Part shown: in pieces, positions 11,054 to 14,425 of the stretch
How the letters are laid out: the number at the start of each line of letters is the position of its first letter
How positions within the stretch are numbered: position 1 is the first letter of the stretch
Origin: a virus
Reading direction: 5' to 3' (one strand)
Length of the DNA stretch: 21,484 nucleotides
UHGV virus genome: UHGV-0095065
Position numbers and translations under genes: made by a program
The notes under the pieces: generated by a model
What the model saw: the letters and a program-made list of their open reading frames with translations, nothing else
The model's database searches: none
Told to the model about the DNA's origin: nothing

Positions 11054-11577
11054 GCTAATGCGCTTTCCTGGTCACGACGAATAACCTGTCCGTAGCAGTT
11101 ATTTGAACGTGTGCGGCAATCACGCCCACCGTCCTTAATCCACCAGCGAATCGACTCACAGGCACCTTTACGATCACCGGCATTAAGCCGCTTATAAAAC
11201 GTCGACGGGAGACACTTACCGGGGCCAATGTTATACGGGCAGAATGACGCAATACCCGCTTTCTGGGGTTCGGTCAGTGGTACTTTGATGTTTTTCTCCA
11301 CCCATGCCAGCGCCTTATCCCGTTCGATAGCGTTAACCCGGTCGCATTTTTCCTTCGACAGCTTCATGCCAGGAATCACAGGCTTACCATCCACCCGGGT
11401 GGCTCCACGGCAGATGGTCCAGATACCCGCACCATCACGGTATGCCGTGGTGTGGTTGCCTTCTTTTTCATCCAGAAACTGGTCGAGGATTTCAGGCGCA
11501 GAAGCACCTGCGGCAATCAGCGCCAGAACGGCAGCCGATAAACCATAGCGGAGTTTCCTGCTCATCAGCTTACTCAC
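11032..11577 (-). CDS. SAR endolysin (phage 21 R-type lysozyme, GH24)
   Basis: 181 aa; N-terminal weakly hydrophobic Gly/Ala-rich SAR segment [19 protein letters not shown], then E...D...T catalytic pattern ([20 protein letters not shown]) typical of T4/P21-type lysozymes. Confidence 0.95.
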
Positions 11578-11785
11578 CCCGTGCCGTCTTACGCCGGTCC
11601 TCTCTGATTTTGAAATACAGGTTCGTCAGATATGTCAGCAGACCAAACAGCAGACTCCCCAGCACGCCTATTGCCGCCCACTGAGACGGGGAAACCCTGT
11701 CCAGCAACTGCAGGAACCAGTAGCCCGTTCCCACCGCTGACGTGGTGTATGACACACCTGTTGTGATTTTTTCCATCTGGTACAT
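11570..11785 (-). CDS. Pinholin (phage 21 S-type holin) with dual-start motif
   Basis: 71 aa [71 protein letters not shown]; two Met codons (M1, M4) give the holin/antiholin dual start; GGAG RBS; overlaps endolysin start. Confidence 0.9.
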
Positions 11786-11817
11786 ACCCCGTCTCCCGCA
11801 ATCCGGAAGCTCACAAC

Positions 11818-11850
11818 AATAAAAAAGACCACCGGCACACACCGATGGTC
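11818..11850 (-). terminator. Intrinsic terminator immediately upstream of the lysis cassette
   Basis: Minus-strand RNA forms a 9-bp stem (one G-U pair) with 6-nt loop followed by UUUUUUAUU; on the plus strand the same pair is a C-A mismatch, so the element is strand-specific. Confidence 0.6.
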
Positions 11851-11862
11851 CCTGACGCATGC

Positions 11863-12108
11863 TTACATCATCATGTCGCTGTCAGGTGTGGGGTCACCGC
11901 TATCTGAAGCACTCCCCTCACCCGCGATGCCTTCCGGCTCCGGAGCTGCCGGTGCGCCCAGCAGTTCATCCAGAATGGCATCCACTTCTGCATCAAGACG
12001 CGCTTCCAGGTTATGGCGGAGTTTCTGTTTCAGTGCGCTCAGGACTTCTTCAGAGCGCAGGACGTCCTTCACTGCTTCAGCAGTGACCAGGGATGTAATT
12101 TCTGACAT
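11863..12108 (-). CDS. Hypothetical acidic protein (81 aa)
   Basis: Start chosen at internal ATG ([37 protein letters not shown]...DSDMMM); the track ORF extends upstream to a GTG at 12282 but overlaps the small membrane ORF; predicted helical, very acidic C-terminus. Confidence 0.45.
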
Positions 12109-12148
12109 GGGATTTTCTCGTCGAAAGATGTGATTAAGAAAGTTGCCG

Positions 12149-12328
12149 CTAAATGAGCGGCTCTTCGGGTTTGCTTCCGGCTGACTGACTGGCGCTGATT
12201 TTCTCAGCGGCCCTTTTGTCAATCTGTCTGCGCCAGAAGTCACGCATGGCCCGGTATCCGCCCGAAAGGAGATACAGCACACAGACCACCGTACAGAAGT
12301 ACAGCATTAACTGGTTCAGAAATGTCAT
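12149..12328 (-). CDS. Hypothetical small membrane protein (59 aa), below the ORF-track cutoff
   Basis: ATG at 12328; MTFLNQLMLYFCTVVCVLYLLSGGYRAMRDFWRRQIDKRAAEKISASQSAGSKPEEPLI: one TM helix plus a basic tail; weak RBS GGTGAG. Confidence 0.35.
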   Translation of the reverse strand: MTFLNQLMLYFCTVVCVLYLLSGGYRAMRDFWRRQIDKRAAEKISASQSAGSKPEEPLI

Positions 12329-12478
12329 GGTTTCTCACCGTGATAGTTGACATGATTTACTTATTTTTGTAGAAAATGTCGCAAACTTCGGTGTCATAAT
12401 GGTCGTTTTACCAGCCGCCAGCATTCATGTAGTGAACACAGTTCATCCCTTTCCTTCATTGCTGGCGGCTTTTTTTTA

Positions 12479-14425
12479 TCATGCCGCGGCGTCCGCGTTA
12501 TTCACTTCCACCGTAATGCTGTCTATCAGTACCGGGTAAGTCGCACCTTTGGTAATGTCTGTCACATGCAGTTTATCCGCCGCAAAGGCACTGACCGGTG
12601 ACTGCGTCAGCGTGAACGGTGTGCCATCCTGACCATCAAGAACCGGCGTCACCTGAAGGCTGTTATTCCCGGCAAAGCGGAAGGCCAGCGTATGCCATTC
12701 GTTATCAAATGCGCCAAAGCTTCCCAGCTTCAGGTTGTTTGTCGCCACTTTCGCATTGTGGTACATCACATTCAGGTCTTTTGCATCCGTCTGGATGTAG
12801 AACGCTGCCAGCAGGTTATTCCCCCCATCGCCGGTCAGGGCAACGCCCTGTGGCAGTGAAGATACCGGCCAGTAAAACGCCATAACATACTGGTTCGCCG
12901 CCAGCGCTCCCGAAGCCTTAAAGCGGCAGCGAATCTGCCCCCCTTTCTGTAACAGAGCCGCGCCGTTGCCCGCAGCGTACTCCAGCACCCAGGTGCTTTT
13001 ACCGGCTTCCTTGGTCAGCTTCACAGCCTTACCTCCGGTTCCCTCCGCATCGCTGACCACTTCTGCCCTGCCGCCACTGGCTGACCATCCCTGTGCTTTC
13101 AGGCTTCCCTCTGACTCGCTGGCAAGGTAAGAGAGCAGTGTTGTGACGCCTGTGACTTCTGCACCGGAAGGCGATGACGGGCGCACTTCTGATACTGTCG
13201 ATGATGCCCCCGCGTTTAGCGCCACTCTTCCCGCATGGCGCAGAATCGCCGTTGCCAGACGGTCGGAAATAATCGCGCGGCGAGCCCATGAACTGAAATG
13301 GCTCTCCCTGTCCTGTGACGTCCAGGTGGCTGAGCTGTCACGCCATTTCGAACCGTAATACCCGATACCCGGAATGTCCGGGTCTTCTTCCGGTTTGTTC
13401 GTCGGCACATTCACCCCGTTCTCATCCGTCATGAACGGTACGAAATGGATATTCTTTTCCGTTTTGTTTTTATAGCTGCCGTACACCGTCTGGTACGTGG
13501 ATTCGTTCTTCTGCTTCCAGAAATACGTCGTGTCCCCGCATATCCAGGGAACACCGCCAGCAGAGCCACCAACGCACTGGCCTGCCATATCCGTCAGGTC
13601 TGCACGGAATTTATCAACCAGCGCACCAAACTGTGCTGCGTGATTTCCGGGCGTGCCGCCAAAATCAAATTCCCCCTGCATCCACACCACGGCAAACAGC
13701 ACATTTTTCGGGTTCTTCTTCAGTGCTGCTTTTGTTCGACCGATAAGGTCCTTATACAGCGGCTTGTCCACACCCCAGCGGGTTGAATTCTCCGAGGCAC
13801 CACTCGCATCACTGTATGTGCCATCGGCTCCGGTGGTGAACGCAGAGCCACCACGGCAGCAAGGTACCAGCAGAATGCCCGCATTCGCCGGTATAAACGG
13901 CAGCAGTTTTTTGGCGATATGCAGCCCCTGCCCCACGGTTCCGTACTGCCCCTTTGACAGATCCGCTTTCGGATGGTTAAGGCGGCTCATGTCCTGCACA
14001 TCATGCAGACAATGGTCCGCCGGAATGATGTCGTTATATCTGCATGCTGCACCACCCGGTGTCACCGTACTGCGACGCGCCAACTGCTTAATACGCGGCT
14101 CCGGACGGTCATATGTCTCCGGCAGCGGAAGACCTTCACCATACGACATGCCGTTTGACTGCCCTGCCAGAACCACAACAAAGTAATACTCCGGGTCGCT
14201 GGTGGCACTGATTACTGCACCTTCTCCACCTGTCGGCTTCACCACAACAGGTGTGCTCACATCACCTTCTGCGACAATCGCCTGAATAAGTGCTGCGCCA
14301 TCATCCGTATACGAAGAAAACGGCCCACCGTATGGTTGCCATCCTTCACGAATTTTTTGCGCAAGTGCATCAGCAAGGTCTGACGGCGATGCCGTCCTGA
14401 CCACATCGTAATGTTTAAATGTCAT
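12479..14425 (-). CDS. nanS-p: Prophage sialate O-acetylesterase (NanS-p-like; SGNH/SASA domain)
   Basis: 648 aa; RBS GGGAGGA; internal VVVLAGQSNGMSYGEG contains the GQSN(M) SGNH-hydrolase motif; size and position (downstream of the stx-equivalent locus, upstream of lysis genes) match the NanS-p esterases of Stx prophages. Confidence 0.8.
   Translation of the reverse strand: MTFKHYDVVRTASPSDLADALAQKIREGWQPYGGPFSSYTDDGAALIQAIVAEGDVSTPVVVKPTGGEGAVISATSDPEYYFVVVLAGQSNGMSYGEGLPLPETYDRPEPRIKQLARRSTVTPGGAACRYNDIIPADHCLHDVQDMSRLNHPKADLSKGQYGTVGQGLHIAKKLLPFIPANAGILLVPCCRGGSAFTTGADGTYSDASGASENSTRWGVDKPLYKDLIGRTKAALKKNPKNVLFAVVWMQGEFDFGGTPGNHAAQFGALVDKFRADLTDMAGQCVGGSAGGVPWICGDTTYFWKQKNESTYQTVYGSYKNKTEKNIHFVPFMTDENGVNVPTNKPEEDPDIPGIGYYGSKWRDSSATWTSQDRESHFSSWARRAIISDRLATAILRHAGRVALNAGASSTVSEVRPSSPSGAEVTGVTTLLSYLASESEGSLKAQGWSASGGRAEVVSDAEGTGGKAVKLTKEAGKSTWVLEYAAGNGAALLQKGGQIRCRFKASGALAANQYVMAFYWPVSSLPQGVALTGDGGNNLLAAFYIQTDAKDLNVMYHNAKVATNNLKLGSFGAFDNEWHTLAFRFAGNNSLQVTPVLDGQDGTPFTLTQSPVSAFAADKLHVTDITKGATYPVLIDSITVEVNNADAAA

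Follow-up and report, generated by a model that had tools for sequence, protein, structure and literature searches.

DUF1378 and DUF826, a gene pair linked to the NanS-p-type esterase of Enterobacterales prophages

In the antiholin systems RI/RIII of phage T4 and LydB of phage P1, small membrane-tethered and small helical cytoplasmic proteins are encoded near the lysis genes, and this format is shared by the pair of small genes considered here. Moron-encoded exclusion proteins of the HK97 gp15 type have other features in common with the pair, namely a small single-pass membrane protein, a location in a cargo slot, and a terminator closing the unit. The pair follows an esterase gene, and the family of this esterase is active on O-acetylated sialic acids (review PMC8065619). 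The phi24B homologue of the esterase, gp84, is a capsid-decorating protein anchored via DUF1737; the two small proteins are not mentioned in this study of the phi24B virion (preprint 10.64898/2026.04.10.717836). The DNA behind the esterase gene is also a described site of small RNAs. According to published coordinates, two Hfq-dependent RNAs of E2348/69, PasC and PasA, have exactly the position and orientation of the small-RNA candidate presented below (Sci Adv PMC8550237, Table S6). The preprint on Pas distribution describes the arrangement “esterase-PasA-holin-lysozyme”, leaves the small ORFs unmentioned, and presents STnc100 as related to PasD, occupant of the same position in other prophages. 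No functional study of DUF1378 or DUF826, the families to which the two small proteins belong, was found in the literature; the mention of “DUF1378” in a paper on ArdC is a typo for DUF1738.

The locus and the two protein families

The window is the whole stretch of 21,484 nucleotides of the virus genome UHGV-0095065. In the part of it considered here the minus strand is the coding strand for all genes, and their order is three tRNAs, STnc100, esterase, 59-aa ORF, 81-aa ORF, terminator, S21-type holin, lysozyme, and Rz with Rz1. The stretch shares 99.7% identity with a prophage from a bovine isolate of E. coli and about 97% with many Stx-converting phages. The features are the following:

16538-16287, minus strand: three tRNAs with anticodons CAT, TCG, and TCT
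14849-14649, minus strand: STnc100 small RNA, just 5' of the esterase (Rfam RF02076, 147 bits)
12479..14425, minus strand: NanS-p-type carbohydrate esterase of 648 aa with the domains DUF1737, SASA, and DUF6645 (Pfam)
12347..12477, plus strand: candidate PasC/PasA-like small-RNA gene in the esterase-DUF1378 spacer (folds and layout)
12334..12339, minus strand: Shine-Dalgarno-like GGTGAG, about 5-6 nt 5' of the DUF1378 ATG (read from the sequence)
12149..12328, minus strand: DUF1378 gene, 59 aa, ATG start (PF07125 and phrog_494)
11863..12108, minus strand: DUF826 gene, 81 aa (PF05696 and phrog_311)
11818..11853, minus strand: intrinsic terminator closing the cassette (pattern scan and fold)
11785-11570, minus strand: S21-type (class II) holin (PF04971, E 1e-32)

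The tRNA trio is the counterpart of ileZ-argN-argO of phage 933W, which is annotated there after Q and ahead of the cargo region. Within the window, the tRNA cluster is not followed by stx genes.

The initial annotation described the 59-aa ORF as having one transmembrane (TM) helix and a basic tail, and hydrophobicity, charge, and the AlphaFold2 helix all agree with this description. Residues 3-25 are hydrophobic, residues 26-43 are basic with a net charge of +4, the pI is 9.2, and a single continuous helix is predicted for residues 2-50. The protein matches PF07125 (DUF1378) over its full length, residues 1-59 aligning with profile positions 1-59 (134 bits, E 2e-39), and also phrog_494 (E 1e-40); for both Pfam families discussed here, membership was assigned when the score exceeded the curated gathering score (25 bits) across the whole domain. 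Compared with Pfam DUF1378 and PHROG 494, it is a typical member of the same size, with no difference seen. The near-identical RefSeq protein WP_000143458.1 comes from a 99.7%-identical prophage. The family is characterized by the conserved helix motif LYF..V..LYL.SGGY; a juxtamembrane helix of basic character and a short tail rich in Pro come next. The C-terminal tail is longer in paired than in solo DUF1378 proteins. DUF1378 is predicted to insert in the inner membrane with the N-terminus out, and with the basic helix and the Pro-rich tail in the cytoplasm. On the nucleic acid level, a 6-pair GC hairpin at 12145-12161 (minus strand; -10.4 kcal/mol, z -3.3), lacking a U-run, carries the DUF1378 stop codon in its loop.

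The 81-aa protein, described initially as highly acidic and helical, is encoded at the stated position, on the minus strand, and both properties are borne out: the pI is 4.1, Asp and Glu sum to 18 against 6 for Lys and Arg, and AlphaFold2 predicts two helices (residues 2-17 and 20-49) followed by a disordered tail (52-81), with a block-mean pLDDT of 93-98 across residues 21-50. The full-length match to PF05696 (DUF826) places residues 1-75 on profile positions 1-75 (131.2 bits, E 1.5e-38); phrog_311 is matched as well, and the RefSeq counterpart is WP_001290230.1. In alignments of the family, the two-helix N-domain (residues 1-51) is conserved, and the acidic, Pro-rich tail varies except for its hydrophobic last residues, MMM/TML, which are conserved. 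These features point to a soluble, acidic cytoplasmic protein of two helices, its tail being flexible and tipped by hydrophobic residues. The opposite charges of the two proteins were considered as a sign of a DUF1378-DUF826 complex, and this argument was dropped, the juxtamembrane helix being equally basic in solo DUF1378 proteins. An identity of DUF826 with YdfR of the Qin prophage, a reported RNase E binder, was also rejected: RefSeq keeps the “YdfR family” separate, and BLASTP gives no alignment. The RefSeq “YdfR family” gene in ST131 sits between holin and lysozyme.

Both ORFs are therefore members of catalogued families without an assigned function and are already present in RefSeq, and the earlier view of them as unannotated-type ORFs resembling no protein that could be named does not hold. 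NCBIfam gave no match for either ORF, and neither matches a lysis family in Pfam, PHROGs, or NCBIfam, nor do the two proteins match any PADLOC defence-protein model. Sequence profile searches of the PDB returned noise only (E at least 0.39), and Foldseek found no match in the PDB for the DUF826 model. The homology searches recommended in the initial annotation show that both ORFs are conserved in related prophages. Of 5426 complete E. coli genomes, 1015 carry the pair; the copies total 2652, and a carrier has 3 of them in the median and 7 at most. DUF1378 formed 123 clusters (90% identity) in a first search and 333 in a profile search among 5.8 billion; for DUF826, 103 clusters were found, and an exhaustive HMM search gave only 55 matches among 1.84 billion representative proteins. 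Both families occur in Escherichia, Shigella, and Citrobacter, with solo DUF826 in Salmonella and solo DUF1378 in Cedecea and Lonsdalea. The two families are narrow and confined to prophages of Enterobacterales.

Reading frames and selection

The brevity of both ORFs, and the history of their annotation in phage 933W, might suggest that they are chance ORFs in a non-coding spacer. The original 933W annotation missed the 59-aa gene and over-extended DUF826 to the 148-aa L0106, the C-terminal 81 residues of which are identical to the window protein. A comparable 139-aa ORF with a GTG start exists in the window (11863-12282, minus strand); it lengthens DUF826 on the upstream side and overlaps the 3' part of DUF1378 in a different frame. 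When compared to Pfam DUF826 and PHROG 311, the legacy calls L0106 (148 aa) and phrog_8301 (139 positions) start too far upstream. P0198, P0232, and phrog_8301 were considered as natural fusions; they look like frameshifted or over-extended calls and were not used as evidence of interaction.

The analysis of selection was based on 43 and 48 distinct DNA versions of DUF1378 and DUF826, respectively, from related loci. The median pairwise dN/dS in the called frame is 0.19 for DUF1378 and 0.30 for DUF826, and reading these nucleotides in the two remaining frames yields 1.2-1.9. Since the off-frame dN/dS exceeds 1.2, the upstream extension of DUF826 is considered non-coding. Within DUF826, the helical N-domain (0.22) is more constrained than the tail (0.42). 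The reading frames remain open down to about 45% protein identity. Because only the called frames show a dN/dS well below 1, DUF1378 and DUF826 are genuine protein-coding genes under purifying selection. Together with the full-length HMM matches and the frames kept intact at such divergence, this selection analysis has already refuted the chance-ORF explanation, the probability of which we regard as negligible.

Linkage to the esterase and independence of the lysis cassette

The synteny sample consisted of the first 128 loci fetched. Of the 123 loci with sufficient DNA on the downstream side, 114 have DUF826 as the next gene after DUF1378, and all 99 paired loci with enough upstream DNA have an esterase-like gene directly upstream. 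DUF826 is almost never seen without DUF1378 and the esterase, and the most divergent DUF826 proteins (Citrobacter) retain the order esterase-DUF1378-DUF826-holin. An S21 holin is immediately downstream in 101 of 104 paired loci. The Mu-like context first surfaced via three paired loci without a holin, and a search with its esterase gave 21 contigs, falling into several divergence classes, in which the order is gin, esterase without DUF1737, DUF1378, DUF826, com, and mom. No lysis gene is adjacent in this gin-com-mom context, which is the right end of the prophage. Within the Mu-like lineage, where dS reaches about 1, dN/dS is 0.24 for DUF1378 and 0.145 for DUF826; both genes are therefore kept by selection without a neighbouring lysis gene. 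DUF1378 and DUF826 are thus tightly linked with one another and with both the esterase and the terminator described below, and they do not depend on an adjacent lysis cassette. It should be considered that the Mu-like copies may all derive from one transfer event, in which case their co-mobility possibly reflects hitch-hiking.

The Mu-type esterase consists of SASA and DUF6645 and has a different N-terminus in place of DUF1737. As DUF1737 is the capsid-docking domain in phi24B, its replacement suggests a swapped virion-attachment module. The esterase cassette is found in the Mu-like viral contigs L086, L126, L139-L153, and L178-L185. Two chimeric contigs, L142 and L145, carry gin, the Mu-type esterase, DUF1378, DUF826, the S21 holin, and lysozyme, an arrangement that suggests that a Mu-like and a lambdoid prophage recombined within the cassette they have in common.

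The reverse situation, a holin without the pair, is found in E. coli E2348/69. In its prophage PP2 (L213) an esterase with the same three domains as that of the window is separated by a 447-nt spacer (NC_011601 743266-743712) from a class II holin, with no small ORFs between them. This interval contains a PasC-like hairpin unit, PasA, and a terminator on the sense strand. Relative to the PP2 arrangement, the pair is an insertion/deletion polymorphism: otherwise collinear phage genomes differ in carrying either the pair (window) or PasA (PP2), which is the presence/absence pattern of a moron. Prophage PP5 of the same strain has the same three-domain esterase, followed by IS elements, and no pair. 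Synteny with the holin-endolysin cassette is therefore not obligate, given PP2 on one side and the 21 Mu-like contigs on the other.

Solo copies occupy further positions, those of Lonsdalea, L128, and Salmonella being distant homologues. DUF1378 alone lies directly 3' of Rz/Rz1 in Lonsdalea, its start overlapping the Rz stop, and after holin, endolysin, and spanin in the metagenomic phage L128; overall, in three of the lineages in which DUF1378 occupies other cargo slots alone, it is placed directly after the spanin genes, and it also occurs after P2-type tail-fibre assembly genes, beside an acyltransferase and a Dam methylase. DUF826 alone follows Rz in Salmonella. The positions of solo and paired copies are the usual cargo (moron) slots of temperate phages. 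In the Salmonella enterica loci of the latter kind (L135-L138), four uncharacterised genes, including a methyltransferase gene, separate the solo DUF826-like gene from the terminase downstream; a possible remnant of DUF1378 (VLAGAGFR) just upstream of the solo gene was judged too weak to claim.

From the position of the two ORFs, a lysis-timing or membrane-related accessory function had been suggested in the initial annotation. The membrane-related part is in agreement with the conserved TM helix and basic helix of the 59-aa protein. The lysis-timing part was based on position only and is not favoured by synteny. If the pair were a lysis-timing accessory, its target would be the S21-type pinholin or the signal-anchor-release endolysin, modulated by the membrane peptide together with the cytoplasmic protein. 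The location directly 5' of the holin in nearly all paired loci, the solo DUF1378 genes after Rz/Rz1 in Lonsdalea and after the lysis genes of L128, and the solo DUF826 after Rz in Salmonella are consistent with this proposal, as is the combination of a small membrane protein with a small helical cytoplasmic one, the known antiholin format of T4 RI/RIII. However, neither sequence nor profile similarity connects the pair with T4 RI/RIII or P1 LydB, no lysis PHROG or Pfam family is matched, the pair is not bound to the holin gene, and a terminator stands between the pair and S. The adjacency to lysis genes is, moreover, expected by location, the positions in question being classical moron slots. 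Because the linkage to the esterase is without exception in the loci that could be scored, the trio is under selection in Mu-like prophages that lack neighbouring lysis genes, and PP2 combines the esterase with a class II holin cassette without the pair, a dedicated lysis-timing role is disfavoured, and we consider it unlikely.

It is also conceivable that DUF1378, with or without DUF826, is independent cargo that hitch-hikes with the esterase and acts on the host envelope or on competing phages. Inner-membrane superinfection exclusion (HK97 gp15, T4 Imm) and modulation of host membrane proteins are examples of such activities. The occurrence of DUF1378 alone after P2-type tail-fibre assembly genes and after spanins, all of them moron hot spots, the variable presence of the pair among otherwise similar esterase-holin regions, and the downstream terminator, a typical moron boundary, would fit this explanation. 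It is weakened by the observations that DUF826 hardly ever departs from DUF1378 and the esterase, that no defence-system model is matched, and that the promoter scan found no promoter belonging to the pair. In the comparison with HK97 gp15-type proteins, the same missing promoter and the company of DUF826 and the esterase set the window copy of DUF1378 apart. Independent cargo is an improbable explanation, and we rate it no higher than a lysis accessory.

The explanation that we prefer, although we would give it slightly less than an even chance, is that the pair consists of a membrane anchor and a cytoplasmic acidic partner, and that it is part of the cargo of the esterase cassette. The mobile cassette would comprise, in this order, the NanS-p-type esterase, the opposite-strand small-RNA candidate, DUF1378, DUF826, and an intrinsic terminator; lambdoid prophages would have it in the cargo slot that follows the antiterminator Q and precedes the holin, and Mu-like ones between gin and com-mom. 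DUF1378 and DUF826 may act jointly late in development, on the cytoplasmic side of the membrane, and they may serve the esterase cassette and not the pinholin clock, e.g., by handling the capsid-decorating esterase or holding it back before release. Against this reading stand the esterases of the same type that lack the pair in PP2 and PP5, the solo copies in other slots, the possible single origin of the Mu-like copies, the silence of the phi24B virion study on the two proteins, and the failure of the scan to find a sigma-70-like promoter of the pair's own.

The spacer RNA candidate, the terminator, and possible cassette control

The spacer between the esterase and DUF1378 is 150 nt long and contains, on the plus strand, a candidate small-RNA gene. 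A TTGACA box (12347-12352) is separated by 17 nt from TAGAAA (12370-12375), a body of ~95 nt follows, and the candidate ends with a terminator composed of a hairpin (12414-12423/12460-12469) and a T8 run (12470-12477) adjoining the stop codon of the esterase gene. The A-run and hairpin in the spacer are kept in 10 of 11 lineages, with differing stem sequences. PasA and PasC (EcOnc51/52, EPEC/EHEC) lie, like the candidate, directly behind the esterase stop on the opposite strand, and they share with it the TTGACA box, an AGAAA(A)T box, and a GCCAGC-type terminator with a U-run. The candidate agrees with these RNAs in location and orientation and in having a putative promoter and an intrinsic terminator. 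The body sequences, in contrast, are not recognisably similar. Rfam gave no match for the candidate at the gathering threshold, and with an nhmmer profile built without the window only the terminator aligns (E 0.28), a similarity that is not significant alone. Because of this nhmmer result, the element is called a candidate and not a member of PasA/PasC.

A scan for sigma-70-like promoters on both strands of 11400-12700 found none, and only weak matches, found by hand, exist on the sense strand. The scan requires T at position 6, a rule that the opposite-strand TTGACA/TAGAAA pair fails. The strong terminator followed by the holin, noted in the initial annotation, is confirmed at the 3' side of the pair: a 13-pair stem (11853-11824) with a U6 run (-19.1 kcal/mol, z = -4.4) begins 9 nt past the DUF826 stop and lies about 35 nt ahead of the PF04971 holin start. 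A GC-rich hairpin was present 3' of the DUF826 stop in all 11 lineages inspected, including Mu-like ones; the stems differ, and a U-run is usual. We read this hairpin as the 3' end of the cassette, which in this respect has its own terminator, as morons do. It probably insulates S-R-Rz from cassette transcripts that are not antiterminated: without Q-mediated antitermination, the terminator after DUF826 would stop such transcripts from entering these genes.

The neighbourhood of the small-RNA candidate and DUF1378 raises another question, whether DUF1378 could be a membrane toxin of the Hok/TisB style, restrained by a PasC-like small RNA and by the acidic, possibly unstable DUF826. With its 59 aa, hydrophobic N-terminus, and charged C-terminus, DUF1378 has the peptide format of a type I toxin, and the candidate is encoded on the opposite strand immediately upstream, complementary to read-through mRNA 5' of the start. 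The flexible tail of DUF826 has a conserved non-polar C-terminus, typical of protease-recognised ends, and might be read as a degron. However, the candidate RNA is complementary only to the upstream read-through RNA and does not reach the DUF1378 ribosome-binding site, and DUF1378 has a strongly conserved cytoplasmic part, an unusual trait in a type I toxin. PasA and PasC, furthermore, occur without DUF1378 and have trans targets, and solo DUF1378 exists without DUF826. A toxin of this kind is highly improbable.

A related and bolder proposal is a portable three-part switch on the integrity of the inner membrane, in which the dose of DUF1378 would be set by a divergent PasC-like Hfq small RNA pairing with the read-through late mRNA immediately 5' of the DUF1378 start, and by the acidic, possibly short-lived DUF826 binding the cytoplasmic tail of DUF1378. 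We mention it as a very unlikely, speculative model. If it were true, the switch could time the release of the capsid-decorating esterase and of virions whatever the holin type, and it would explain how the same unit works in both lambdoid and Mu-like phages.

On present evidence, the pair is a well-conserved known unknown. About one in five complete E. coli genomes carries it, often more than once, and so do most Shiga-toxin phages. It is flanked by the toxin/esterase region on one side and, on the other, by the lysis genes, through which toxin and virions are released; if it controlled this release, it would be relevant to Shiga-toxin biology. Its membership in the esterase cassette shifts the focus from lysis curves alone to esterase handling, virion decoration, and envelope effects. 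The analysis also corrects the over-extended L0106 annotation of 933W and puts a PasC/PasA-like candidate beside the pair.

A further hairpin (CUUCCG/CGGGAG) is located at 11793-11809 (minus strand), just 5' of the holin start at 11785. Its folding energy of -8.4 kcal/mol is no better than that of shuffles, and it is conserved in most of the lambdoid lineages inspected. It overlaps part of the Shine-Dalgarno region of the holin, ahead of the dual-start motif MYQM, and it may be a translational control element of the class II holin.
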